From: Dehalococcoidia bacterium
Lineage (GTDB): Bacteria; Chloroflexota; Dehalococcoidia; Lucifugimonadales; UBA3495
DNA length: 64,000 nucleotides
Reading direction: 5' to 3'
Assembly (NCBI GenBank): GCA_965221385.1
Contig: OZ244885.1
Location: 1,088,643-1,152,642 of the forward strand
The notes beneath the pieces are model-generated. The model was not told the DNA's origin and did not search any database. It saw only the letters and a list, made by a program, of their open reading frames with translations. The translations under genes and the position numbers were made by a program. Positions 26,361-54,008 of this stretch are shown piece by piece (position 1 is the stretch's first letter; the number at the start of each line of letters is the position of its first letter).

Positions 26361-26442
26361 GTTCTACAACCAGTCTGGCCTCTGGACCGCCCGCCCGTAA
26401 TGCCTTGAAAGGGGGGGATCGCACGCCCCCCCTTTCAAGGCA
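26361..26442 (+). promoter_or_regulatory. Conserved motif, right copy in element B, ending in a perfect 17-bp stem (26401..26417 / 26426..26442)
   Basis: GTTCTACAACCAGTCTGG..GTAATGCCTTGAAAGGGGG aligns with 13778..13830; TGCCTTGAAAGGGGGGG-atcgcacg-CCCCCCCTTTCAAGGCA. Confidence 0.5.
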
Positions 26443-38339: not shown

Positions 38340-41300
38340 CTAGACACCTACCGGGACGAATACATCAGGATGGTTTTGTACTTGTTCGGCAAATGGTTTG
38401 TCGTACCGGATGGTTATGACCCGGAATCCAAGGTCTTGCAATTCTGCACGGACCTTGGAGTCCGTCAATTGTTGCCCAGGTTCATCGTGATGTGGACCGT
38501 CCAAGAACACGCAAATGCCGGGGCGTCCCTCGCGTTCGTAGTAGAAGTCGGGCTGCACATGCAAATCCGAAGCAGGGCGGTTTTGAGCGTTGTCTGGCAG
38601 GCGGATGTGTCCCTTGTAGAGGAAATCGAGAAAGTCCATCTCCAACGTAGAATCCGCGAGTCCAGCCAACCACTCGTGCTGTTCTATATAGGTGCGCTTT
38701 CCTAGTTGGCGCACAGTTGTAGACGACGAAAGTAGGTCAAGATAGCTGCGAATGCTGTGGCGGTCCAGATGTCGGTGTTCCAACTGGTTGGAGTAGGAGA
38801 GCAGACACTCGTAGCAAGCGGCAGCGCAGTCCTTGTCCGCAGTTGAATCCTCGGACTGTTCCTCAAAATGGCACAGTTGCAGAGCTTGGAGGGCAACCTT
38901 CGCAATCGCGCCTGGCTCATTTGTCAGTTGCTCCCAAACACCGATGCCACCCTCCGCCGCCTCCCAGAGTAGCAGGCGGCGAAATTCACCCTCGCCTATG
39001 AGCTCAGCTTCAATTTCCTGCTCCTCCACTTGGTAGGCAAACTGGATTGCCCGCTTTAGTGCGTGAAGCAAGGAAATCTGAGAGCTCTCCGACATAATAT
39101 CTCGGAGTGGCTTGAGGAGAAGGATGTTTCTGAAATCTTGCACATACGGCTTGACGCCGGTCAGTGGGCCTACAATTGCAGGATCGCTCTCAGTTTCATC
39201 AGGCTCATCGCGAACTCCCCATCGCCCAGTTTGCCTGTCGATAGTAAATCCAGAGCGCTCACTCCTCCTCCAGCCGTGATTGATTCGCCAAACCCGTGCT
39301 CCGGGCGCGATCACCGCTTCCAAAATTTCCTCGCCATCTTTAGAGCGAACAATTGCACGTTGGGCGCTGGTGCTAGAAAAATTGAAGTGCGTGGTCACGT
39401 CGTAGCCGCTTCGAACGCGCTCCTCTTCTTCTGACGAGATTCTGTCCGTGGCGCGGGCGCGCATCGTTGGCTGGGGGAGTAACCGTTGGGGGAAGCCGGA
39501 CGTCGAACCATCCAGCTTGGTTTCGCAGTGAATGCAAAGCTCAACGTTGACATCTTCCCCGTCGTGAGCGTACCCACAAACATTGCAAAGCTTGGCGCTG
39601 GTAAGCACTCCCTCAATGCCGGCCGGAGGGATCAATGCTTCACGTATCCGGTGCTTGCGTCCCTCGTGGTACACCTGATTGCCCGGCCCAAATTCAGTGA
39701 GGCCCAGAAAGCGGGGGCGGTCAATGATTTGAGCGTTCTGTTCAACGGTTACTGTGGTTCTGACGGGCAGTCTTGGGAAGTTGTACCCAGGAAGAAATCC
39801 CTCGCCGGCAAGGTAGCGATACGGATAGAAGTCAGACTCCTCATACCGGTTTGTTCGATTGAGCAGCAACCCAATCTCGCGTCGGGCCTCCGCCTCCCGC
39901 CTCTCGGCTTCTTCCCGATCCTTCCTACTAGCGTGGGGATCATCAACTACGCGGTGGGCTGCGTCGCGCAAGGCGAGGGTGGAACGGTATAACTCACGCC
40001 AACGATCAAAAGCCCTGTCTAGGGCTTCGGGCGCCGACCTCAACGTATCCTGAATCCAATCATCCGAAAACCACTTTGCCTCCCGGATGTCCTCGGTTCT
40101 CTTGATGATCTGTTGGGCGCGGTCCACGGCTTCAATTATCCGCATCTCGCTGTTCGATCCCCGCAAGGCCTCGGCATTTTCTGGCTGGATGGGGAAATCA
40201 CTTTCATTCAGATCAAGAATTTCGGCCATTCCACTGCCCAAGCGTAGTCCGGTTGTGGCAAGCCAGGTGGAGTACAAGTGGGCTTTGACCAATTCCTGAT
40301 TTTGGAGGTCCATTCGCGCCGGGGTGACTGCGCCGGCAATCATCTCGTTTCGGCGTCCGAAGTAGTATTGGTCATGGGCATTACCGTGTGCAGCGTAGGC
40401 AACGATTAGGGCAGGACGCCCCCCTCGACCAGCACGGCCACTGCGCTGGGCATAGTTGGCGGGAGTGGGCGGGACATTGCGAAGGTGTACTGTGTCCAAG
40501 TCCCGAATGTCCACGCCCAATTCCATCGTTGGTGAACAGAACAGGGCTGATAGTTCGCCTCGCCTGAAATTGTCTTCGCGCGCTAAGCGAGTTTCTGAGA
40601 CGACCTGCCCAGTATGCTCGGCTGCAAGCATTCCACGCAATTGGCGCGCTTGATGCTTGTACAGATGGACGAAGTAGTCGTTTGCCTCACCGGCGCCAGC
40701 TATTTCTCGCTTTAGGTGCAAGGACCGCGACCTTATCGGATCAGGGGGCGCAGGACGGCCGTCGCCGGCGGTCCAAACCATACTTGCTGCCAGTAACCTT
40801 ACCCCTCGGACCTCCCCGCCGCTATCAGATACGGTAGAGAGTAGATGTCCACGTAACGCAGCTACAATGCCGATTACGATGTCTTCAGCCTCTTGCGGGG
40901 AAATGCTTCTCTCCAAATTCCAAGCATGGGCTGAGCGCAGATAGCGCGCTACGTTGGAACGCGCTCCCAATCTAAGCACACCTCGTTGCCTGCCTTCGGT
41001 TCGAGTCGTCTGTACACCCGGCAGCAGCGCGATGCCTTGCGCCCGCAGGCGATCACCGTCATCGAATCGCCACGGGTCCCGTAACCACTGACTTGCCCGG
41101 TCGCGCAGACTTCGGGTCGAACTCTCGCTGAGGGATTCTGCTTCAATAGCAAGATTCATCCTCAGATGGTCGAGGAACGCGCGGATCACCCCAGTTCGCG
41201 TCTCTGGGGTGGCGTCGCCGATAGTAGGTAGTTCCTGCCACAGCGATTCGTCCGCGGTCAGTTTTTCGAGCCCGGCGTATTCGATTCGGAGTAGACCCGT

Positions 41301-43430
41301 CTGCTCCAAGTTAGGTTGCGTGATTCTCCAACCTCGGCTCAAGTCCTCCAAGGTTCTGTAGGCCAGAACGTCAATGATAGTTCGACGCCCAGTGTCATAG
41401 CCAGGGCCGCTTGCTACCGGCTCTTTCAGAAAGTCACCGGGCCGCAGTTGCAACGCATCGAAGACTTCCTGCCCCATCTGGTCGAACGTGAGGTGATGAT
41501 TTCTGCTCAGCGCCTCGACGATACCGGACCTGAGCAATGCCACCTGTACAAAGTCGTTCAGGTGACCGGCTTGCAGGGAGGCATCCTGCCGGTTGTCGGT
41601 AAAGCTGAGGGACTTCGTTTCCTCAGATGGTAGGCCCTGTTCAGCCATGCCCGAAACCGCCGCGTTCACCGCGATGGTAGTTGCTGTGGACCGCCCGGTT
41701 TGACTGAGCGAGGACAGTTTACGAAAGTCGTTCTGACGGGAATCATATACAGCACGACAGCGAAGGCATATTAGGAACGGTCTGGGCTGATACCATCCCG
41801 TCACACTGTTATCGGACCCGTCGTTTAGCCCTCCGCCAGGGGACGCGCTGTACTGGATGGGACGGAAGCGGGCATAGCCTGCCTTGATCGCCAGACCGGA
41901 ACGACGCTCGTTGAACCAGTGCTCCGGCAATTCGGTATCGTCGCCATTCCATAGGTCTTCTTCCTCAAGGGCAAAAAACCCGTCCTCTCCTTCGATGTCC
42001 TCGGTGGCTATTCCCACCATGGGTGAGCGAGGCACGAGGGACTCAAACCCTTCCCGTTCGGTCCGCGCAACCAAGTAATACTCCTGTCCGCACTCACGGC
42101 AGAAGGCCAGGGGGAATAGCAGTCGGTTTCCGTCGGCCCGATACTGGCCGTCCATCCTGAATTCCCTGGAACCAGCGTCCTCCAGGGTTGCGTAGACGCT
42201 GCTGCCTGATGAGAACCACTGGTGCAACCGGAAAGCCAACAATGGCTGACCGTCTTCGCCCTTGGCCTCATTACCGGCCTCCAATATTGCCCGCAACTGC
42301 TCCTCGCACTGTCCTACGGGAAGGCTGGTCTCGTCGGCCAGGCGCTGGGATATTGCGTCGAAGGTTTCCGGTGGACGGCGAACGAGCCTTCCGTCCTCTT
42401 CTTTCAGCCCGAAGGCTTCTTCCGTCCATGCCGTTAGTGGATGCTGGCGGACGGCATCTGCTTCCGGTGTCGGCGCCGGAGCCTCTACTGCCGCTCGCAA
42501 CGACGCGGCATCTGTGGGCGTTGGAACCCCAGCGACGCGCCGTAGCGTTTCGTCCACCACGTTGGCGGCGGGAACGTTCAGCCCGAAGAACTTGGACGCT
42601 AGTCCCGCCGCCGCTTCGTTGCGTTCTTGCCGGGATCCGCCGGTTACGATAGTGGCGCTTGTGGCGATGGCCTGGAGGTCTCTTCCGGCGCTTTCCTGCA
42701 AACGCCGAGTTAACATGGCTACATCGGCGCCCTGCCGTCCCCGATAGAAGTGCAATTCATCCATCACCAACGTTTGAAGGCCTTGAGTGGCGGTGGCAAG
42801 CAGTGGCCGTTCGGCGGGGCGAAGTAGCATGTACTCCGCCATGACATAGTTGGTCAGCAGAATATGTGGCGGGTCTTCCTTTATGCGCTCCCGTTCCTCA
42901 GCACGGTCCTGGCCAGTGTAGCGGTCAAAACGGACGGGAGAATCGGGATAGTTCTCCTCTTGGAAAGCTCGCAACGCATCCAATTGGCTGTTGATCAGGG
43001 CGTTCATCGGGTAGATAAGCAGCGCGCGGACAGAATGAGTCTCCGGAGAATTCCGGATGATGGCATCATAGATGGGCGCCAGGTAGGTGAGGCTCTTGCC
43101 GGAACCGGTCCCGGTGGTGACGACGTAGGATTCGCCCCGCAAACCTATTTCGATGGCCTCTCGCTGGTGGCGGAAGAGACGCAGGCCCTCGCCAAAATAG
43201 CGCGCGGTCTCCGACGCGATTACCCCGTCGGCCGCCAGCTCCCCCATGGTTCGATCCCGCTCAAAGGCTGGATTCAGCTGGAGAACCGCATCAGGCCAGA
43301 GTTCCCCCTCGTCCAGCATTTTTTGGACGTAATTGTCGATTCGCTGGTCCAGAACTTGGACAAAGCTCTTCACGTAGTCCCGGTATTCCGAAACTACCGT
43401 TTCCCTCAGCTTAAAGACATCCAGTGTCAT
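38340..43430 (-). CDS. DEAD/DEAH helicase fused to a DUF1998 (MrfA-type Zn-binding) domain and a C-terminal Vsr/DUF559-like endonuclease fold; DrmA+DrmB-like
   Basis: TTGTGSGKS, VMDELH, SATI; CNVCGY..CIHC and CAAACYECLLSYSNQ; C-terminal PDFYY..ICVFLDGPHHD..R..L..GFRV. ATG at 43430, 8 nt after the MTase stop. Confidence 0.8.
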   Translation of the reverse strand: MTLDVFKLRETVVSEYRDYVKSFVQVLDQRIDNYVQKMLDEGELWPDAVLQLNPAFERDRTMGELAADGVIASETARYFGEGLRLFRHQREAIEIGLRGESYVVTTGTGSGKSLTYLAPIYDAIIRNSPETHSVRALLIYPMNALINSQLDALRAFQEENYPDSPVRFDRYTGQDRAEERERIKEDPPHILLTNYVMAEYMLLRPAERPLLATATQGLQTLVMDELHFYRGRQGADVAMLTRRLQESAGRDLQAIATSATIVTGGSRQERNEAAAGLASKFFGLNVPAANVVDETLRRVAGVPTPTDAASLRAAVEAPAPTPEADAVRQHPLTAWTEEAFGLKEEDGRLVRRPPETFDAISQRLADETSLPVGQCEEQLRAILEAGNEAKGEDGQPLLAFRLHQWFSSGSSVYATLEDAGSREFRMDGQYRADGNRLLFPLAFCRECGQEYYLVARTEREGFESLVPRSPMVGIATEDIEGEDGFFALEEEDLWNGDDTELPEHWFNERRSGLAIKAGYARFRPIQYSASPGGGLNDGSDNSVTGWYQPRPFLICLRCRAVYDSRQNDFRKLSSLSQTGRSTATTIAVNAAVSGMAEQGLPSEETKSLSFTDNRQDASLQAGHLNDFVQVALLRSGIVEALSRNHHLTFDQMGQEVFDALQLRPGDFLKEPVASGPGYDTGRRTIIDVLAYRTLEDLSRGWRITQPNLEQTGLLRIEYAGLEKLTADESLWQELPTIGDATPETRTGVIRAFLDHLRMNLAIEAESLSESSTRSLRDRASQWLRDPWRFDDGDRLRAQGIALLPGVQTTRTEGRQRGVLRLGARSNVARYLRSAHAWNLERSISPQEAEDIVIGIVAALRGHLLSTVSDSGGEVRGVRLLAASMVWTAGDGRPAPPDPIRSRSLHLKREIAGAGEANDYFVHLYKHQARQLRGMLAAEHTGQVVSETRLAREDNFRRGELSALFCSPTMELGVDIRDLDTVHLRNVPPTPANYAQRSGRAGRGGRPALIVAYAAHGNAHDQYYFGRRNEMIAGAVTPARMDLQNQELVKAHLYSTWLATTGLRLGSGMAEILDLNESDFPIQPENAEALRGSNSEMRIIEAVDRAQQIIKRTEDIREAKWFSDDWIQDTLRSAPEALDRAFDRWRELYRSTLALRDAAHRVVDDPHASRKDREEAERREAEARREIGLLLNRTNRYEESDFYPYRYLAGEGFLPGYNFPRLPVRTTVTVEQNAQIIDRPRFLGLTEFGPGNQVYHEGRKHRIREALIPPAGIEGVLTSAKLCNVCGYAHDGEDVNVELCIHCETKLDGSTSGFPQRLLPQPTMRARATDRISSEEEERVRSGYDVTTHFNFSSTSAQRAIVRSKDGEEILEAVIAPGARVWRINHGWRRSERSGFTIDRQTGRWGVRDEPDETESDPAIVGPLTGVKPYVQDFRNILLLKPLRDIMSESSQISLLHALKRAIQFAYQVEEQEIEAELIGEGEFRRLLLWEAAEGGIGVWEQLTNEPGAIAKVALQALQLCHFEEQSEDSTADKDCAAACYECLLSYSNQLEHRHLDRHSIRSYLDLLSSSTTVRQLGKRTYIEQHEWLAGLADSTLEMDFLDFLYKGHIRLPDNAQNRPASDLHVQPDFYYEREGRPGICVFLDGPHHDEPGQQLTDSKVRAELQDLGFRVITIRYDKPFAEQVQNHPDVFVPVGV

Positions 43431-44309
43431 AGCTGCCTCTACTCGGTAAGGTCTGGGGCTTGACCTTGCGCCAGTTGGTCGTAGGCTTTCAGGACGTAGC
43501 GTTGGGTCCGGTACTCGCCGAACTCCCGCATCTCGTTGCGCTTGAGGCCTGGGAAAGATCGGGACGGCTCCGGCGCGTCGAGGATCCACTCCAAGTCGGG
43601 CCGATCCAATTGGTACATGTGGGCGTAGATGGCGTCCAACTCGCACTTCAGCCGGTGGCGCCGCTCCTCATCCCAAGGGAAGGGTGGGCCGTCGTAGCCA
43701 AGGTCCCGGGCGAAGGGTTCCAGGTCGTGGGCTGTGTAGGTCAGTTCCAGCACCCGTGGCACCACCATCTCCACCCAAGCAACGCCGGGCGAACCCTCCT
43801 CCAAGTACACCTCTGGCGGCAGCACCGGCAGCTGCTTCAAGATGAAGAAGTTCAGATTGACGCCCCCGACAGACAACCGAGCAGCCCAATCAAGCGGCAG
43901 ACTGTTCAAGTTTGCCAACACCAAGCATGAAGCGGTTGATTGCCAGTTTTCGTAGGCGAGAACTGGCGCACTATTGCCTACACCGCCGGTTGGCAGGTTT
44001 TCTGTCACCACAGTCCGCTCATTGGTTGCGTTAGTGATGCCCCGGATAGCCTGAAGCCAACTGGATGATTCCAGACGGATCAATGGCGCTTTGTTGCTCA
44101 CGGCGACTCCAGGTATTGCCATGCAGATTGCGGTTCGTTCGTTGGTTGGGCTTGCGATGTCCCTGAATACAATGACCCAACCGAAATGGTAGTGCCAGAA
44201 TCGCTGAGGCCCACGCTTGCTATCATTGCGGAAATTCCCGTTCGCTCGTTGGTCGGGTTGGTGATTTTCCTGAGAGCGAGCTGCGAGCCAATGCCGCGAG
44301 GGTACGTAG

Positions 44310-44417
<108 letters not shown>

Positions 44418-44913
44418 TAGGATGGTATCGCCGGTGTTTTCTGATTTGTCAAGTCTTTCAGCGACCTCTTTTTCCGGGACCCAGTAACGCGGCATGATCA
44501 CGGTGTAAGGGTCAGCCTTTTCCTCGTCGGTCAGCTCGCGGGCGTTGCCGCCCAGCAGGGCTTTCTCGTCCACGCCATCAAAGGTGGCAAAGCGGTGGTC
44601 GTACTGGTGGAACAGCTTGGCCTCATATAGTGGCAGGTAACGTTCCACATCCTCCCCTTCTCCTCGCACGAACACGTTGCTCTGTAGCCCAAATCCGGCC
44701 TCCTCAAAGCTCCCTCCAGGAGCGGAAGATGCTGGAGTCGTTGGACATGTCGAACATTCTCTGGAATCTGACGCCCCAGGGGTTGCTGACTGAGGGAGAG
44801 TCTTTCCTTCTAGCCGGTAGCCCTGAGCTTCCAGTTCTGTCCGAGTTCGAAACAGACCGGATGCGCTTGACATGTGAAACATCGACTGAAACCGTACGCT
44901 CCAAGGATTCCTG

Positions 44914-44922
44914 CCCCCCCCC
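44914..44922 (-). repeat. G9 homopolymer (C9 on the plus strand) within the methyltransferase gene
   Basis: Counted directly; lies at the switch between track ORFs 44704..47916 and 44223..45074. Confidence 0.95.
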
Positions 44923-47879
44923 GGCACCTTGGCTGTCGCGGACGAAAACGCCGGCTCGCTGGTACATTTTGGCGGCGACTTCCATGTCCCGCCGAGTGCG
45001 GAATGTGGGGCTGGTTCGGGTATTGGGGTTGAACAGGGCAAAGTCTTGAGGCGCCAGGTTGTACCTACGGGCATCGTCCTGTAGTTGTTGAGATTGCGTA
45101 AGGTAGAAGGCGAACTCCGCCTGTGGGCTGGGTCGGCCCGTTCCGGTCATGGTGAGCAGGCAGAACTTTATCCTGCTGTCGATACCGGCAAAGACCTTCT
45201 CTCGATTTTCGAAGTCAAAGAGGCTGACCAGGGAGCGGCGGTTCACCAGGTCACCGAAAAATACCTTGGTTGTATCGTCTGTGGCTATCCCTGAAGGCAC
45301 GATGATGCCGGCGCGGCCCGATGGGTGGCAGATTATCCGCGCCGTTTCCGAGAATATGGAGTAGGTATTGACATCGCCGCGTCCGGCCAAAGGAAACCGA
45401 TTGCTGTTGCGAACAAAGCGGCTGACCGACTCTGAATCGTGAACGGCGTCATCAAATGCCTTGGCCAATGCAGGATTGGTGTTGGGCAACCTGTTGATCA
45501 ATCTGCTGCGGGCGGCCTTGTTGGGGGCGTTAGCGATTTCAGGGTCTCGTGTGGCAAAGAACTCCTTCTCCTGGAGCTTGATCCGCTCCCAGGGCGGGTT
45601 GCCCAGCACCACGTCGAAGCCGCCGGCCTCCATTACGTCGGGAAACTCTAGAGGCCAGTGGAAGAATCGTTGCCGTTCCGACGCCCCCATAGCGGCCCCC
45701 ACCAACTTCGCGTTCGCGCTATGGTCCTGTAGGGCATTCCGGACGTTCTGGGTGGTAGGAACCATGTCTACCCCGTCCGAACCTGCCGGCTTAAGCGGAG
45801 CGAAGAAGCCGTAGGTCCACAGGTCGCAGGCCGTCTTGATCTCCCACCATCGGGTGCCCTGCCCACGCAGTTGTTTGTACAGGTCCTCCTTGGCTTTCAC
45901 CTCTGACGGGCTGCGTTCCTCCAACTGGCCGAAGGCTGCGAAGTCCTCGCCCAATTTCGCCGAGGACGATGGAAGTATCTCCAGATTCATGCTCTGCTGT
46001 CCCGTCAACTCCCGCCGGTTGCGATTACGGTAGTCAGTTGCCGCTCTGTTGTCATCGCCGGTAACGGTCCTGTAGGCCCCGTCCGGGATGCCCTCTTCCA
46101 AAACCGTAAAGTCACTGACGCCCACCAGACTATCGCCGCACTTGATGCGATGGTCCAGGAAGCTGAGGGGCAGGCCGGCGGCGTGGCTCTCCAGCCACAA
46201 TGCCACCTTGCACAGGTCCACCGCCAAAGGATTCTTGTCCACGGCATAGATGCAGTTGCGGACCACCTCTCGCAGGGCGGCGCGGTAGTCTGAGGGTGAC
46301 GGCTCGTCCTCACCAGTACGAACCTTCGCCAGCTCCCGTGCGATGCGGCGGGCGGCCGCCAGCAGGAAATGGCCGGAACCCGAAGCTGGATCGCAGACCC
46401 GCAGGCTCAGCAACGCCGCCGCCTTATCCTCCGGCGTAGTGGCCTCATTCAATCGCTCTTCCATCACGGGCGCCAGGGCGCTTTCGACCAGTTCCCGAAC
46501 CAGTTCCGGTGGCGTGTAGTAGGAACCCGTTTCCTTCCGTTCGGTGCCGGCGGCCAGCCTGAAGTGCGCAGGCTCACCAAGGTCATCTCCCAAATCCACA
46601 ACCGGGCGGTAGTCCAGGAGGCTCTCATAAACGGAGCCGAACTCCTCAACGTCCAAATGCGCGTAGTTGACCCGGCGGCGGATGCCCTTGTCACGGAAGG
46701 TAGATAGATGAAGCAGGGTTAGCAGCAGGGACTTGTTGGGGCAGAAAGCCTTCTCGATGTCCTTGCAGGCGCTCGATCCAAACAATTCCCCGTTTAGCGG
46801 AGACATACCCAGGTGGGTCGCGGCTTGTTCATCGCGGAACATGCGGAATGTCTGGGCGAGCCTTTCCCAGAGGTCGCCATGGTTGTCGTCGGCGAAGTTG
46901 CCTTCGGCACGGTCTCGAAGGCTGGAGACGCTGTAGTATCGGTCATATATTGCCTGCGCCTCCAGAGAGGCGCCAGAAGACAACAGCCTGCGCTCCTCGG
47001 TAACCATGAGGAAGAGCATCCGGTACACGAAATTGAGAAGCTGCCTGAAGTACCCTGCTTCTGTGAGCCGGCCGGCGCGGATGGCTTCTCGCAAGGTGTC
47101 GTTGCGAGGATGTCCAACCAATGCCGACCCCAGCTCAGCGAGCGCCAGCTCCACGCCGTGGCGCAAATTCTCCCGCACCCTTCCGCCTTCCTCGATGCCT
47201 TGGGTGTAGTATTGCTCCAACAGGCACTCATGGGGTTCAACGCCGTCGCCAGGAAATCGGCTGGCGTGAAGCAGTCGGTAGAGCACCACGAAATCCCCGT
47301 AGGCATTGCTCTCCAGCATCGAACGGAGATCGAACTCCAAGTAGGTCGGCCTGGACAGGCGAGCGCTATCGCGTAGGAGCCGTAGTTTGGCTCCATTGGA
47401 CACCAGGCCCCAAAGGGTCTCCGAGCGGTTCAGGTAATCCTGAACCAAGGCGTGGGGCGTTCGACGGCTGGCGGTTCCGCGCCGATCCAGGTCCTCTCTG
47501 ATGCCGACGATGTGCAACGGTGGCGCATTCTCGGAGTCATGGATACGGTGAGAAATTGGGAACAACGTACCCCCGACGTCGGCCGAGGCTCTTTGGTATT
47601 CCACATTCGTGAATCCCAACAGCTCCATGAACCCGGTCATCCAGTCTCGCCGGGTTAGCGTCGTTTCGCTCTCCCTGGAATTCTCCAAGCGGGCATCGAA
47701 GGCGACCCAATACTTGCGGGCCGCGTCAAAGGCCTTCCCCGTTTCGTCGGGGAGACGGGAGCCAGGAGGCAGATTGAAGTCCTCAACCGCCTGACCCGCG
47801 ACTCTCCCTTCCTCTGACGCTAGTCGCTCCAGCAAGTCTGGGGGAAACAATCCGCCTTCGATATTGATGGTCGTGTAGC

Positions 47880-50711
47880 TCATGGAGATGCTCCAGCTGG
47901 CGTCAAAACGTAGCACCCAATGATGTCCGGCGGCAGGTGAGGTTCTACCTTAACCTTGGATCCCCTAACGGTTCGCCGCAATCGAGCGTGGGCGCCTTCA
48001 AGGGCCGCAACACGCTCAGCGATAATGCCATTGGCCCAGTCGCCATCCAGCATTCCCAAGGCCCATTCGACGTGCTCGTGACGCTCTGCCTGGGAGATGT
48101 TGGCCACGGGTTCAGCATCGCTGAGAAGCCGGAGGGCTTCATCCTGCAAAGGGGAAAGCCAACGTAACCCATCATCGCCTCGCTGAAATGCAGCCGCGAC
48201 GACTTCCTCGGCGAACTGTTGGCTCTCCGCTTCTATCAGGTATCGCAAACGCAATATAAGCACCGCCGTGCGTCGTTCTACCGCACGGGTGACAATGGCT
48301 CCAGAACGGGAGAAGAGCTGGTCGTTACCTTCAAGGGAACGTGAAAGCACTGATTCTGCCGTGGTTGCGACAATGGGGTGATTGCGCCCCAACAGAGTTA
48401 CTCCCGGCGGGGGTACGCCCTTGAAGGACACCTGCATCGGGAAGGACAACCGCTGGTCTCGCGCAATAATACGGGTCTGCAAATCGCCTGGCGCCAAGGT
48501 GAACACCCCGTCAGTCTTGGTGTCGCGGAGACCTCCGTTGAATCGCTGCACGGCGTTTGCCATGAACCGATACACGTCATCGGCGCTGCCCAACACTGGA
48601 TCCATCTCGGCAAGCTCGCCAGCAACCTCGTCGGGCTGGATTCCGCTTTGGGCGAAATAGGCCCGGGATTTTCCGTCCTTGTCGGCCATTTCCTCCCACG
48701 CCTCATGCAGGCGACTAACTGATGGATCCTCCAGGGCGAGACCGATTTGCTGCCCCTGGCTCGGCCGTCTCAGCAGCACACTGTCCACCAGAGCGTTAAC
48801 TACCTGCTCCGATTCTACAGGCACGGGCACGGAAATGCCGAGGCTTTGGCGGATGGTCTGAGCCTTTCGTAGTAGGACATCAAGGACAACCAAATCGATC
48901 TGGTTGTCCGCTCCGTATAGGAGCACGGTCTTGATTGTGGGCTTGCTCTGGCCAAAGCGATCAACCCTGCCTTCGCGCTGCTCCAGACGATTTGGGTTCC
49001 AGGGAAGATCATAGTGAACCACGGCGTCGTAGTGGTCCTGTAGGTTTACGCCCTCGCTCAGACAATCCGTAGCCACCAGGACTCTCACCGGCTGTTTTGC
49101 CAACTCCAAGACGATTTCCTTGCGTTGCTCGCTGTCGCCTGCATTACCGGTTACTGCCTTGACCGTGAGGCCCCCGTGACTGCTTTCCAATGACTGCTGA
49201 ATGTGCTCTGCTACGTAGTGGGCGGTCTGAATGAAGCGGCAGTACACTATGGGCCTGTATCCCTCGCCCAGAAGTTCGGATACAATCTTGGCGGTTTCTC
49301 GGACTTTGGCGTCCTTGCCAGGTTTGGCCAGGTCATCGGCGCGTTTCAGGAAATCGTCCAATCTCCGAATTTCGCGGGGCCCAAGAGAGCCGCTGTGGTC
49401 GTCCTCGTGGGTCGCTGGAACATAATCGGTGGCCTGTTCCTCATCGACGGAATCCATTAGTTGCTGGCCAAATGAATCGTCAGGCGCGAATCCGTTCTGT
49501 CGTCCGGACGTGGGCGGTTTGCGGTTCTGTAGCGCGGCCCGGGCGGCCCAGGGGCTGGACAAGACACAACGTAGGATCGACAGAGCCGCCCAGTAACGGA
49601 CTCTCTGGCGTTGGTCCTGCACGCCTGAACCGGAAACCTGCTCCCGGCAATAGGACAGTATGTCTTCGTACAGCCTGTGATAATCCGCCGACATCCTATA
49701 GCTCCGTTCGACAGCCTCCCTTTGGGGGAACGGCGTGTCAACTCCCAGCCAGCGTTCCAGGTCAATCCTCCTCCGCTGAATGAAATGAGGCAGCAACTTT
49801 TGGCGGGGAACCTCCGTACCGTCGGGCGGATCGAAGCTGGTATCGATGATACCGAGGAGGGACCTGAAGCTCTCCTCAATTCCGCTATGGGGAGTAGCGG
49901 TGGTAAGGATCAGGTGCCTGTTCGAGTCCTGCGCCAAATCCCGCAGCAGCGCATACCGTTGGTGTTGAGACCCTCCCCGGTCACCCCTCGGTCGTGCGGC
50001 GGTGTGGGCTTCATCCATAACAATAAGGTCTGGCGCATTATCCAAGAATCGCTGACGATTTCGGTCCGATTTTACGAAATCTATGCTTACTACGAGGTGG
50101 CGGTAGTGCTGATAGAGAGACACGTCTCCGCGAGGTAAGGCTCGCTCCAACCTCGCGATTCTGGAAGACTGGACAACAGCCGCTTGGATGTTGAATTTCG
50201 TGCGTAGCTCCTCCTCCCACTGCTCGCAGAGGTGTGGAGCGCACAGAACACCAACCCGACGCACAACTCCTCGGTCCAACAGCTCTCGCGCAATCATCCC
50301 AGCCTCAATGGTTTTCCCGATGCCAACGTCATCCGCGATCAGTAGGCGAACGGGATCGAGGCGAAGCGCCATGATTAGAGGAACAAACTGGTATGGGCGT
50401 GGAACAACGGAAAGCCGCCCCATCGACCGGAAAGGGCCGGCGCCGCTCCTCAGTCCGAGCCGCACCGCATCCCGAAGCAGAAGCGCCCCGGTAAAGTCTC
50501 CAGCCGAATTCGGGTCAGGTTGCTGGTACTCCGAATGCTTTAAGGCCGTCGGTTCCAGGGGCAGATAGACCCCTATGGCATCCTCGTCGGAGCCGTCAAT
50601 GGGTCGCAGTCTGGCCACGTTTGGTTCATCAGGCGGCAAAACCACCCAGTCCCGGCCGCGCGCGCGGACCAACTGCCCTGGCGTCCACTTGCTCTCCTGC
50701 CGTGAAGCCAC
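47880..50711 (-). CDS. drmD: SNF2-family helicase, DrmD-like
   Basis: LIADDVGIGKTIEAG, VMDEAHT, TATPHSG, helicase C ..LATDCLSEGVNLQ..REGRVDRFGQ; ATGA overlap with the MTase start. Confidence 0.8.
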   Translation of the reverse strand: MASRQESKWTPGQLVRARGRDWVVLPPDEPNVARLRPIDGSDEDAIGVYLPLEPTALKHSEYQQPDPNSAGDFTGALLLRDAVRLGLRSGAGPFRSMGRLSVVPRPYQFVPLIMALRLDPVRLLIADDVGIGKTIEAGMIARELLDRGVVRRVGVLCAPHLCEQWEEELRTKFNIQAAVVQSSRIARLERALPRGDVSLYQHYRHLVVSIDFVKSDRNRQRFLDNAPDLIVMDEAHTAARPRGDRGGSQHQRYALLRDLAQDSNRHLILTTATPHSGIEESFRSLLGIIDTSFDPPDGTEVPRQKLLPHFIQRRRIDLERWLGVDTPFPQREAVERSYRMSADYHRLYEDILSYCREQVSGSGVQDQRQRVRYWAALSILRCVLSSPWAARAALQNRKPPTSGRQNGFAPDDSFGQQLMDSVDEEQATDYVPATHEDDHSGSLGPREIRRLDDFLKRADDLAKPGKDAKVRETAKIVSELLGEGYRPIVYCRFIQTAHYVAEHIQQSLESSHGGLTVKAVTGNAGDSEQRKEIVLELAKQPVRVLVATDCLSEGVNLQDHYDAVVHYDLPWNPNRLEQREGRVDRFGQSKPTIKTVLLYGADNQIDLVVLDVLLRKAQTIRQSLGISVPVPVESEQVVNALVDSVLLRRPSQGQQIGLALEDPSVSRLHEAWEEMADKDGKSRAYFAQSGIQPDEVAGELAEMDPVLGSADDVYRFMANAVQRFNGGLRDTKTDGVFTLAPGDLQTRIIARDQRLSFPMQVSFKGVPPPGVTLLGRNHPIVATTAESVLSRSLEGNDQLFSRSGAIVTRAVERRTAVLILRLRYLIEAESQQFAEEVVAAAFQRGDDGLRWLSPLQDEALRLLSDAEPVANISQAERHEHVEWALGMLDGDWANGIIAERVAALEGAHARLRRTVRGSKVKVEPHLPPDIIGCYVLTPAGASP

Positions 50712-50819
50712 GCGATTACCTACCTATTTTCCAAGTCTTTGTGCCATCGTTTGACATCATCAAATTATTACCTTAATATTGCAACACGCTTCACTAACCC
50801 AGCGACGGAACCTGCCGTG

Positions 50820-51656
50820 ATGACCACCGACACCAAGCCCAAGCAAACATTGGTAGGGATCGAACTCATCCGATTGCTTACCTCCGAGGGCGACCGTATC
50901 TTCACCATCGAACGGGCTCGCGAGTTGGCGCCCCGTGTCGGGCTGAGAGATTCCTATCTTCGGGAGGCATTGTACCACCTTCGCCAGAACGGATGGATAG
51001 TCTCCCTACGACGGGGACTGTATGCCCTTTGCCCGACGATTCCAGGCGTGCCGGCTGCGCACGAGTACGAAATCGCCACGTTTCTGGTGACGCCTGCAGC
51101 CATCTCCCATTGGTCAGCCTTGAGCTATCACGGCCTCACCGAGCAGCCGCCTAGGACTGTCTTCGTATCGACCACCACGCAGGCTTCCGTTCCCCGGTCC
51201 AGGCGAAACGATGCGGACCGCCTTGACCAGGGCTATGAAGTCCTGGGTACAGCATACCAATTCATTCAACTCAAGCCGGAACGCTACTTTGGGGCTGAAA
51301 AGGTTTGGCTCAACGACGCCCGGGTGAGGATTACCGACCTGGAACGCACACTGCTGGACGCGCTATCCATGCCCCAACACTGCGGCGGATTTGCCGAGGC
51401 CCTCCACGCCTTTCGTTCAGTGACGGACAGGTTGGACATCGACCGGATCGTGGGTTATGCCCTCCAGCTCGATGGAGCTACCGCCAAGCGTCTCGGCTGG
51501 GTTTTGGAGCAAGACGGGATAGATTCACCGCAACTGGATGTCCTCGCCGACTTCCCAGTCAGGGGATACACGCGGCTCGACCCAACCGGGCCCAGAAAAG
51601 GGAAGTGCGGCGGGCGGTGGATGATTCAGGAGAACCTGCCCGGAATGCTTGCATGA
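50820..51656 (+). CDS. abiEi: AbiEi-family antitoxin/transcriptional regulator
   Basis: ..LRRGLYAL.. ISHWSALSYHGLTEQ .. DLERTLLDAL pattern. Confidence 0.75.
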   Translation: MTTDTKPKQTLVGIELIRLLTSEGDRIFTIERARELAPRVGLRDSYLREALYHLRQNGWIVSLRRGLYALCPTIPGVPAAHEYEIATFLVTPAAISHWSALSYHGLTEQPPRTVFVSTTTQASVPRSRRNDADRLDQGYEVLGTAYQFIQLKPERYFGAEKVWLNDARVRITDLERTLLDALSMPQHCGGFAEALHAFRSVTDRLDIDRIVGYALQLDGATAKRLGWVLEQDGIDSPQLDVLADFPVRGYTRLDPTGPRKGKCGGRWMIQENLPGMLA

Positions 51657-52531
51657 TGAGACCACTACACACCCGTCTTCAAGAAGCCCGCCAACGCCTG
51701 GGCCTACCATGGGAAGTCCTGGAGCGTGACTACCTGCTGTCGTGGGTCTTGGCAGGGATAGCGCGAACGCCGGCCCTCCGCGACTCTCTGGCATTCAAAG
51801 GCGGCACGGCCCTCAAGAAGTGCTACTTCAGGGACTATCGCTTTTCCGAAGATTTGGACTTCACGGGACTGGACAGCGCCCCTACTGGGGAGGCGATGGA
51901 AGGGGCCATGAAAGAAGCCATCGAGAGTGCGTTGGAGTTGCTAGAGGAATATGCCCCCATCGTTCTGGAATGCCAAAGGTACTCGGAGCGGGAGCCGCAC
52001 CCAGGCGGTCAAGAGGCTTTCGTCATACGCGCTCAGATGCCGTGGCAGAACCAGCCCCAGACCCGAATCATGGTGGAGGTAACGCTTGACGAGAAGGTTT
52101 TCTGGCCGATGGAAAGACGGCAAGTCGTCCACGAATACGGCGAGCCTCTGGAGGCTGAGGTCCTGATCTACTCGCTGGAAGAGGTGGTGGCCGAGAAGCT
52201 GCGGGCAATCCTCCAGCACGCGGATACACTGGAACGGCGGGGCTGGAGCCGTTCCAGGGCACGGGACTACTACGACCTTTGGCGTGTGTTGGGAACTCAC
52301 CGACAACGGTTGGATCTGACCGAGTTCGACGCCAATCTGCGGGACAAATGCGCTCTCAGGAATGTGGCATTCACCGGGCCGGCTGATTTTTTCGCTCCTC
52401 GAATGATGGGCTATGTCCGCGAAACGTGGCGACAGTCGTTAGGCCCACTGGTCCCAAACCTGCCTGCCTTCGATGCGGTTATTGAAGACCTACGCCCGCA
52501 AGTTTCGGGACTCATGGCGGGCGACGACTAG
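51653..52531 (+). CDS. abiEii: AbiEii/AbiGii-family nucleotidyltransferase toxin
   Basis: LAFKGGTALKKCYFRDYRFSEDLDFT; ATGA overlap with abiEi. Confidence 0.8.
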   Translation: MMRPLHTRLQEARQRLGLPWEVLERDYLLSWVLAGIARTPALRDSLAFKGGTALKKCYFRDYRFSEDLDFTGLDSAPTGEAMEGAMKEAIESALELLEEYAPIVLECQRYSEREPHPGGQEAFVIRAQMPWQNQPQTRIMVEVTLDEKVFWPMERRQVVHEYGEPLEAEVLIYSLEEVVAEKLRAILQHADTLERRGWSRSRARDYYDLWRVLGTHRQRLDLTEFDANLRDKCALRNVAFTGPADFFAPRMMGYVRETWRQSLGPLVPNLPAFDAVIEDLRPQVSGLMAGDD

Positions 52532-52775: not shown

Positions 52776-54002
52776 TTGGCGCAAGAGGTCGTTAGGGGCA
52801 TGAGGGAAGCGGCCTCCCGTGGCTTCTGGATGACCACCAACGCCCCCTACGGCTACCAACGGGTTTACGTCCAGGACGGCGCCAAGAAGCGACCCCGTTT
52901 GGCCCTGAATCCCCCGCACGACGCCGTGGTCCGCCGCATCTTCGATCTCACCCTCCAGGGCAAGACTTCCCTGGACATCCTGAAGACCCTCAACGGCGAG
53001 GGCATCCCCTCGCCCATGGGAAAGCAGTGGCGCAAGACCACCGTTCACAAGGTGTTGGGCAACGAAGCCTACACGGGAACACTGGTCTGGGGCGAAAACG
53101 CCAAGGACAACGCCCCGCCGGTGCGGGTGGAGAACGCCTTTCCCGCCATCGTGACGAAGGGAGAGTTCGCCCGGGTCCGCAGCCTCTTGGAGTCCCGCGC
53201 CCCCAAGGTAACCCACCCTCGGCGGGCCGCCAGTCCCTACCTGCTGAGCGGGCTGGCAAAGTGTGAGACCTGCGGCAAGGCCCTGACTGCCGCCGAAGCC
53301 AAGAGCGGCAAGTACACCTACTACGTCTGCCAATCCATGCTCAAGCTGGGCAAGGATGCCTGCAACTGTCCCCGGCTGAATGCCAAAGACTTCGAACAGC
53401 TCATCATCTCCACCCTTCGGGAACACATCCTCACCGAGTCCAACATACGAGATTTGGTCAAGATGTTGGATGAGGAGATGGACGGCGTGGCCAGGGATCA
53501 AAGGGACCGGCTGGAGACGGTGGAGGCGGAACTGGCCGAGGTTCGGCGGAAGATGGACCGCATCTGGTATTTTGTAGAGAACACCAAACTGGACATGGCC
53601 GACGCCTCGGAGCGCATCCTAGAACACCGCCACCGGCGGGAGCATCTGGAAGCGGCCGCCGAGGAAGCCAGGGCCGTCCTGGCGGAACGGAGGCAGTTGC
53701 TGGACAGCGCCGACGTGATCGCCGCCTTCGCCACCGAGATGGGGGAGTTCCTGCGCACCAGCGAGATCACCGAGACGCGGGCCTTCATCCGGTCATTCGT
53801 GAAGGAGGTGACAGTGGTTGCCGGCAAAGCCACCATCATCTACACAATCCCCACCCCCAAGGACAGCCCCATCAGGGGAGCGGACATGGCGGAAGTGGCT
53901 TTGAATGGAGGTTTTCGCAGTACAATACATGATGGTGGGCCGTGTGGGGGTCGAACCCACGACACCCGGATTAAAAGTCCGGTGCTCTGCCGACTGAGCT
54001 AA
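52776..54002 (+). pseudogene. Element A large serine recombinase, C-terminal fragment (continuation of 11232..11654)
   Basis: Starts (L)AQEVVRGMREAASRGFW..; recombinase domain, zinc-ribbon-like CETCG..C..C and a coiled coil. The last ~23 codons are translation through the antisense of tRNA-Lys, so the true end is uncertain. Confidence 0.85.
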
Positions 54003-54008
54003 CGGCCC
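53933..54008 (-). tRNA. tRNA-Lys(UUU): tRNA-Lys (anticodon UUU), encoded CCA
   Basis: Hand-folded cloverleaf: acceptor GGGCCGU/ACGGCCC, D arm GCUC/GAGC, anticodon stem CCGGA/UCCGG with loop CUUUUAA, T arm GUGGG-UUCGACC-CCCAC. Confidence 0.9.

Follow-up and report, generated by a model that had tools for sequence, protein, structure and literature searches.

In a 64,000-nucleotide stretch of a Dehalococcoidia genome (contig OZ244885.1; hereafter, the window), a run of nine G residues at positions 44914..44922 of the minus strand coincides with a break in the reading frame of a gene for a large N6-adenine methyltransferase. From sequence comparison, we consider it likely that a conserved frame-switch module is built into this PglX/DrmMI-like defence methyltransferase and that the G9 tract is its hypermutable element. 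A preliminary description of this DNA had favoured a contingency-type switch over random decay, and our results support that view with amendments. As judged from alignments, the switch is a module composed of the G-run and two frame-offset copies, X1 and X2, of the coding block that comes next. Runs of G8 to G14 occupy the homologous site in eight relatives, in differing frame states, and every coding block of the window gene is intact in its own frame. Our comparisons show a defined anatomy, its conservation and tract lengths and states that differ among relatives, and they indicate selection on both frames.

Direct reading of the minus strand, on which the whole gene lies, gives ..CAAGGTGCC-GGGGGGGGG-CAGGAATCCTTGG.., with the bases ..GGTGCC preceding the tract. 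Frame A, an open reading frame (ORF) at 47916/47883..44704 (1059 codons from 47883), crosses G9 as ..SQGAGGGQESLERT.., and frame B, offset by +1 (ORF 45074..44223), reads GGGRNPWSVRFQSMFHMSS.. straight after the run, which is the next conserved block of the enzyme. The frame change falls exactly at the tract, as had been described. Upstream, positions 44923..47883 encode an N-terminal domain and a complete gamma-class N6-adenine methyltransferase (MTase) domain, with motif I DPASGSGHF, motif IV NPPW and matches to Pfam Eco57I PF07669 and N6_Mtase PF02384. Downstream, alignment to intact homologues places the middle part of the protein (EEAGFGLQSNVFVRGEG..LPLYEAKLFHQYDHRF..PRYWVPEKEVAERLDK..) in frame B at 44418..44705. 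Removal of one G, together with one AGCC unit from a tetranucleotide repeat farther along the gene, creates a single ORF of 1479 codons (47883..43439) with 0 internal stops, in keeping with the length of about 1480 codons first proposed. This joined ORF is 52–65% identical to intact homologues of 1400–1426 amino acids (aa), with 100% of its length aligned.

The sequence that follows the run in frame A is not simply noise. The preliminary description held that this frame ceases to resemble a methylase after the tract; that is correct for the first 43 codons, after which a second copy of the conserved block comes into frame (44784..44707) and is closed by a stop at 44706..44704. The block, NPWGVRFQ...LEGN, is present twice as diverged, frame-offset tandem copies, with a period of 122 or 125 nucleotides (nt) in loci that carry the module and of 125 nt in the window. 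X1 (NPWSVRFQSMFHMSSASGLFRTRTELEAQGYRLEG, 44805..44909) lies in frame B, offset by +1 from the N-terminal part, and is in frame only with G8 or G11. In the G9 state it is read out of frame as a 43-codon linker, QESLERTVSVDVSHV..SPSVS (44785..44913). X2, which comprises 26 residues and a TGA stop (44704..44784), is in frame with the N-terminal part at G9 and ends the product with ..SWREL. The G9 product is made up of 990 N-terminal residues, the 43-residue linker and X2, giving 1059 aa, and is identical to database protein P0001. The same out-of-frame X1 linker also forms part of the intact full-length proteins P0008 and P0249, and the intact homologues of 1400–1426 aa have a single X block. Another protein, P0085, is 65% identical overall and ends, at the protein level, in the same 26-residue X copy (..WREL and stop), with no long G-run. 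The next ORF on its contig begins MRGEGDAIERYLPLYE, as in the window. The shared ending and the shared start of the next ORF indicate that the window-type variant is not private to this genome.

The length of the tract dictates the predicted product. G9 gives the 1059-aa protein, G8 or G11 joins the frame to the next ORF, and G10 leads into a 36-codon junk tail. The predicted G8 product would run through X1 and about 33 aa of out-of-frame X2, then into ..EEAGFGLQSNVFVRGEG..LPLYEAKLFHQYDHRF. The tract has the properties expected of a contingency locus, being a perfect run of at least about 7 inside an ORF, in which a change of length alters both frame and product. It is also the longest homopolymer of the window (GC content 62.6%), followed by two 7-mers at 26411 and 26426. 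These two, the only other G/C 7-runs of the window, are contained in a perfect 16-bp inverted repeat at 26402..26440 (GCCTTGAAAGGGGGGG-atcgcac-CCCCCCCTTTCAAGGC) that could be a terminator-like or REP-like (repetitive extragenic palindrome) hairpin. At the second frame break of the methylase gene stands (GGCT)27, the only long perfect simple sequence repeat (SSR) of the window. The earlier remark that simple-sequence tracts sit at both breaks is borne out.

Comparison with relatives shows that the G-run and the duplication occur together. Scanning one genome for each species, we obtained 80 loci, and exact-protein look-ups added six more; most are metagenome-assembled genomes (MAGs) of uncultured bacteria from many phyla, judged from record titles. 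A G-run and an X duplication occur together in 8 of 75 scorable loci and are both absent from 65 (Fisher p = 4.7e-9), with two loci off the pattern, one having a doubtful second X match only and the other an unrelated A8 only. Full-length frames are found with G8 (L081, 1441 aa), G10 (L009, Longimicrobiales) and G12 (L085, a TARA scaffold, 1465 aa). Short forms are found with G11 (L082), G12 (L015, Rhodothermales) and G14 (L083). Two relatives are dead, L025 with G10 in the junk frame and L022 (Dehalococcoidia) with G12 and an early stop. The window, at G9, reads X2 and then stops. The sequence records of the eight relatives are OY730414, OZ244824, CAZSNF01, CBDETH01, ERZ25069191, ERZ23495064, ERZ25072854 and ERZ28653960.

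Close relatives differ in tract length and in state. A single 90%-identity protein cluster contains both P0030 (1036 aa, short, from the G11 locus L082) and P0249 (1465 aa, full length, from the G12 locus L085), and another contains P0041 (991 aa, G12, L022) and P0125 (1037 aa, G14, L083), whose genes share 91% nt identity. Lengths range from 8 to 14 over the nine loci, a comparison among close relatives that covers the relatives and not the window species itself.

The two copies of the block have consistent roles in the relatives. In 8/8 the remainder of the gene is contiguous with X2, and the read-through route uses X2, not X1. In the same 8/8 the X1-frame ORF closes at the same place (..GN.xVRETxGE and stop), with the stop overlapping the NPWGV codons of X2; P0030, P0035 and P0125 are exactly the short form that closes there. 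Across the eight relatives, variable columns of X1 number 14/10/30 at codon positions 1/2/3 of its own frame (chi-square p = 0.002) and its pairwise differences 151/107/365, and X2 is comparable, with 19/14/32 variable columns; these counts were made with no correction for the tree, and exchange with single-copy alleles through recombination may have added to them. From this codon bias, X1 appears to be translated and constrained in its own frame, beyond what an out-of-frame spacer would be, and both frames appear to be under selection.

In L022 (6318..6326), GATAAT stands where L083 has GACAAT, which places a TAA in the read-through frame just past the G-run and leaves the X1 frame intact (VDNPW); with this point difference, only the short isoform is reachable in that genome. 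L084 (ENA ERZ25067264), on a contig of 4.8 Mb, shares at least 90% identity with the lineage of P0041 and P0125 in its methylase N-terminus, but it lacks a G-run and contains only one X block. On its upstream side it has a Transposase_mut gene, and on its downstream side a fragmented helicase. Judged from its sequence, L084 is evidence of modular recombination and local decay, and the module appears to be mosaic.

We propose that the module operates as follows. A poly-G tract sits in a surface loop just past the catalytic domain; X1 is a copy of the next beta-rich block, and X2 follows 122 or 125 nt on in the -1 frame. Slipped-strand mispairing would alter the length of the tract, presumably in a reversible manner, and length modulo 3 would select one of three products. 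The first reads through to the C-terminal target-recognition region and would be subject to a second switch at (AGCC)n. The second is a short protein that ends just past the in-frame X copy, keeping the catalytic domain and lacking the target-recognition part. The third is a truncation with a junk tail. In the window, G9 would be the short type, G8 or G11 would allow read-through via X1, and G10 would yield the junk tail. The G-run and the AGCC repeat would vary independently, toggling the enzyme between its full-length and defined truncated forms.

The second switch, (AGCC)27 (read as (GGCT)27 on the other strand), lies at 44310..44417 and is scored by Tandem Repeats Finder as 27.0 copies with 100% match. 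An SSR occupies the homologous position of the gene in 44/47 loci, with units of 1, 2, 4, 5, 7, 8 or 11 nt and never 3, 6 or 9; such repeats reach 49 copies (245 nt), and in L002 the repeat is a C29 homopolymer. The upstream and C-terminal parts are in frame across this site in 14 loci, offset by +1 in 16 and by +2 in 17. The C-terminal part of the window gene (43439..44293), delimited by alignment and by AlphaFold2/Foldseek analysis of a homologue, is in the third frame and consists of a linker, Yb (44179..44060), Yc (44059..43946) and a TaqI_C/PglX-like target-recognition and C-terminal region with its stop at 43439. The Y block, R.I..(A/P)T(N/D)ERT..., is present as three diverged copies within 44277..43946, Yb and Yc in frame and Ya in the +1 frame. 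Ya (ALRKITNPTNERTGISAMIASVGLSDSGTTISV and a tail to the stop, 44098..44277, frame A) stands directly past the repeat and forms an alternative C-terminus after site 2, with the consensus ALRKITNPTNERTGI.AMIP.VGLSDSGTTI.V and a stop that closes its frame about 58 codons on. Its own frame shows conservation in 36 loci, with pairwise differences of 9423/5313/12788 by codon position, and the bias holds in loci in the full-length state as well (828/447/1073). In L008, Y copies are found in all three frames.

That the design seen at site 1 recurs at site 2 lends further weight to a programmed system of which G9 would be part. Members of about 1140, 1160–1180 and 1400–1410 aa occur together in the 90% clusters of P0014, P0020, P0034, P0056, P0063 and P0077. 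Many gene lineages appear, from such clusters, to switch at site 2, and some of the short members may be contig-end fragments. A broader reading is possible, and we offer it tentatively: a two-tier frame switch spread across phyla, in which each hypermutable tract is followed by a frame-offset duplicate under purifying selection with a conserved stop, and in which length would pick defined isoforms (the catalytic core, the core with the middle part, or the full enzyme) and not only an ON or OFF state. The short isoform may on this reading have a function of its own.

Structure prediction is consistent with the placement of both switches. The AlphaFold2 model of an intact homologue, P0011, has a mean pLDDT of 79, and its top Foldseek matches are the BrxX/PglX structures 9ewz_C, 8c45_A and 8q56_A (E 5e-14 to 5e-13, TM score about 0.4), followed by CamA, MmeI, M.BseCI, DrdV and LlaBIII. 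The model suggests a PglX-like fold, with an N-terminal domain, a gamma-class MTase and a C-terminal target-recognition domain. A sequence search of the PDB with P0002 gave no match, and fold comparison alone was informative. By profile, the best PADLOC matches of the methylase are DrmMI (E = 5.8e-80) and Type IIG profiles, and its match to PglX is weak (E = 2.9e-10). In the P0011 model, site 1 is a loop between helix 743–756 and the X strands, and the site-2 repeat with the out-of-frame Ya is a disordered linker (pLDDT 25–33); both positions should thus tolerate insertions. A single composite Y unit is modelled with confidence, and the tandem Y copies look redundant in this model. The short products keep the whole catalytic domain and lack the C-terminal target-recognition region.

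Several observations weigh against our interpretation of the window locus. First, a G9 tract is not improbable by composition: dinucleotide-preserving shuffles yield 4.7 G9/C9 runs per 64 kb. We therefore dropped chance rarity as an argument, and the case rests on position and on comparison and conservation; the window is, for its part, strongly poor in homopolymers, with three runs of at least 7. Second, an extra T after X2 (CTT TGA, 44709..44704) puts the remainder of the window gene in the X1 frame, unlike in all eight relatives, and the conserved X1-frame stop is missing. The window X1 is also the most diverged copy, with 56–64% aa identity to the others. Third, with G8 alone the gene would still be broken at the AGCC repeat, and the path that G8 would open (X1, about 33 aa of junk, then the rest) has no counterpart in the databases searched, where the protein search gave fragment ORFs only. 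This missing counterpart is the main weakness of the claim that G8 is the ON state. Those databases also hold no relative of the window gene at 90% identity or above, P0001 being the one member of its 90% cluster, and scans of JGI metagenomes with a pattern of G8 or longer followed by X1, and with the window-specific flank, gave 0 matches each; no contig from the same species turned up. Finally, residues 978–1059 of the AlphaFold2 model of the G9 product, which are the linker and X2, form no confident structure (pLDDT 24–41); the idea that a folded terminal X copy caps the truncated protein is accordingly unsupported. By alignment, the roles of X1 and X2 are swapped in the window relative to the other loci, with the same logic retained: in one frame an X copy would close a short product, one would read through, and one would give junk.

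Four other explanations for the frame break were considered, and the evidence weakens each of them. The first, which we regard as unlikely, is an error of consensus or assembly: the true tract would be G8 (or G11), the N-terminal and middle parts would be one ORF, and there would be no switching. Homopolymers of nine or more are the commonest sites of indel errors, and the window comes from a 2.9-Mb contig, possibly assembled from long reads. The G9 frame does not end at random, however, but in a second in-frame copy of the block and a stop, as in P0085, which has no long G-run. A one-base correction would, moreover, leave the break at the AGCC repeat and a 33-aa junk insert. The names of the contigs bearing L015, L082 and L085 are in SPAdes or scaffold style, which suggests short-read assemblies (long-contig assemblies are also represented among the relatives), and these scaffold-style contigs carry G11–G12 in different frames. 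Long G-runs are hence not confined to one style of assembly.

That the gene is a decaying pseudogene, in which ordinary inactivating frameshifts happen to fall in simple-sequence tracts, seems to us quite improbable. Three frame disruptions in one gene (the G-run module, the extra T at 44706–44708 and the AGCC repeat), the unusual divergence of the window X1 and the point-mutation stop in the read-through frame of L022 all fit such a history. Yet the N-terminal part, X1, X2, the middle part, Ya, Yb/Yc and the C-terminus are each stop-free in their own frames, and together they retain 52–65% identity over 100% of the length of intact proteins. Loci from several phyla repeat this architecture and show purifying selection in the alternative frames, and the units at site 2 are never triplets.

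Programmed +1 ribosomal frameshifting would leave the DNA unchanged: a ribosome translating the G9 message would read the N-terminal part, the linker and X2, and would then slip by +1 at GGAGG-gag-CUU-UGA into the middle part. A prfB-like site does stand at the position of the extra T (GGAGGgagCTTTGA, 44704..44717, found by pattern match), with a Shine-Dalgarno (SD)-like string, a 3-nt spacer and CUU UGA. The window has a single occurrence of the motif GGAGGnnnCTTTGA, against 0.03 predicted by shuffles, and it is placed exactly where X2 meets the rest of the gene; a +1 slip there would give ..SWRELEEAGFGLQSNVFV.. (..RELEEAGFGLQSNVF..), colinear with homologues, and P0085 likewise ends, at the protein level, in ..WREL and stop. 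Against this, the pattern was picked post hoc, and the SD-like string is merely the codons for W-R-E. The product would in any case stop past the AGCC repeat. CUU UGA with an SD-like string about 3 nt upstream is what a prfB-type site has, but conservation among relatives is lacking, as the site is absent from 8/8 module-bearing relatives, where X2 is contiguous with the rest. We give this explanation very little credence. A -1 slip from X1 to X2 was also considered and set aside; inspection of the relatives' sequences revealed no canonical slippery heptamer at the X1 stop.

A split gene, in which two or three separate polypeptides (the N-terminal part with X; X with the middle part and Y; Y with the target-recognition domain) assemble through duplicated boundary blocks and the repeats are incidental, is likewise very improbable: duplicated boundary segments are typical of gene fission, called ORFs do start inside X2 and Yb (P0153, P0155 and the window ORF 44122..43439), and two thirds of loci are not fused at site 2, but fused ORFs of 1400–1465 aa share 90% clusters with split ones, the frame relation of the parts varies among loci instead of being fixed, and the fact that no SSR at the junction has triplet units points to selection in favour of frame change.

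A length-variable frame module in the methylase gene, which we continue to favour, would probably affect methylation and defence. It is the methylase that provides DNA recognition in systems of the PglX, Type IIG and Type III kinds, and for this reason its switching would likely produce stochastic ON/OFF methylation. By the same reasoning, the switch probably extends to the whole defence module of SNF2 helicase, MTase and DruE-like helicase. The upstream partner in the window is an SNF2-type, DpdE/DrmD-like helicase of 943 aa (47880..50711, minus strand; PADLOC DpdE 3e-186, DrmD 2e-92; Pfam Helicase_C, ResIII), and the downstream partner is a DruE-like DEAD helicase of 1696 aa with an MZB (DUF1998) domain (38340..43430, minus strand; PADLOC DruE 1e-96; Pfam DEAD, Helicase_C, MZB). 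The SNF2 helicase also adjoins the methylase in L081–L083, and the DruE-like helicase does so in L081 and L083. An AbiEi antitoxin/AbiEii toxin pair (50739..52531, plus strand) sits beside the SNF2 helicase gene, with a tRNA gene (53936..54008, minus strand) about 1.4 kb beyond it. AbiEii is a neighbour in L082 and L083 as well, which indicates synteny of the defence island between genomes.

For a few host-adapted pathogens, phase-variable methylases are textbook knowledge. Here, the same principle would operate in a DISARM/BREX-like module across uncultured Chloroflexota, Gemmatimonadota, Rhodothermota, Proteobacteria and others. If this is correct, stochastic changes of defence and epigenetic state would be common among environmental and symbiotic bacteria, and gene callers and pseudogene filters would systematically take such loci for broken genes; of the family members that we examined, roughly two thirds fall into two or three ORFs. 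This family could also serve as a natural test of whether truncated isoforms of a defence methylase have a function of their own. Homopolymer and SSR lengths at these sites in MAGs could then be flagged as biological signal and not as assembly noise.

A close known parallel is pglX of Streptomyces coelicolor. In the account given in PMC4365076, citing Sumby and Smith (2003), contraction from G8 to G7 inactivates Pgl, and switching occurs at 1e-2 to 1e-4. Both G-tracts are found in high-GC bacteria, inside the gene for a large N6-adenine methyltransferase of PglX type that belongs to a phage-defence system, and BrxX/PglX structures (9ewz, 8c45, 8q56) are the best matches to the AlphaFold2 model of the window family. 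The window gene differs from pglX in having two SSRs, and to our knowledge frame-offset duplicated blocks after the tract have not been reported for pglX. Its partners also set it apart from BREX and Pgl systems, as it is accompanied by an SNF2 helicase, a DruE-like helicase with MZB and AbiEi/AbiEii, with no PglZ, BrxC or BrxL in the ORFs scanned. The module also resembles Class 1 DISARM (DrmD, DrmMI, DrmA, DrmB, DrmC), in that a DrmD-like SNF2 helicase adjoins a DrmMI-like methylase and a helicase with DUF1998/MZB. Unlike in Class 1 DISARM, however, helicase and DUF1998 are fused in one DruE-like protein of 1696 aa, the SNF2 protein matches DpdE better than DrmD, and there is no phospholipase D (PLD)-nuclease DrmC among the 10 flanking ORFs scanned. 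The module looks DISARM-like and not like canonical DISARM.

Other phase-variable methylases share some features with the window gene. Like Cj0031, a Type IIG enzyme of Campylobacter jejuni, it has a mid-gene poly-G in a very large fused methylase-containing enzyme. The OFF state of Cj0031 consists of two annotated ORFs (PMC4889913), and in C. jejuni, for which poly-G switching rates have been reported, the modal poly-G length is 9 (PMC3401435). Unlike the window gene, Cj0031 encodes restriction and modification in a single protein that is simply turned ON or OFF, with no described duplicate of a block in an alternative frame, and its host is an AT-rich pathogen and not a high-GC lineage known from MAGs of uncultured bacteria. 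In Type III mod phasevarions, non-triplet SSRs in the methyltransferase gene switch methylation and restriction (e.g. PMC6902483, PMC7383803), a tetra- and pentanucleotide pattern into which the window (AGCC)27 fits. The enzyme class is a different one, however, and the window repeat lies about 1150 codons into the ORF and not near the 5’ end, in a family found among uncultured bacteria of many phyla.

Variation that remodels a protein instead of abolishing it has precedents. Adamczyk-Poplawska et al. reportedly found in 2011 that a poly-G in the Neisseria NgoAV hsdS gene leads to a truncated but functional specificity subunit. In Helicobacter canadensis, repeats late in ORFs change the C-terminal sequence of a protein that is not abolished (PMC2823697). 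The alternative C-terminus in the window differs from both, as it is a duplicate of the native next block, apparently selected in another frame and with a conserved stop in the family, an arrangement not described in either case. Poly-G phase variation of PglX and Type IIG methylases is already known. What is new is the context of enzyme and system, the presence of two SSRs in one gene, the spread across phyla and the conserved frame-offset duplicates that follow each tract.

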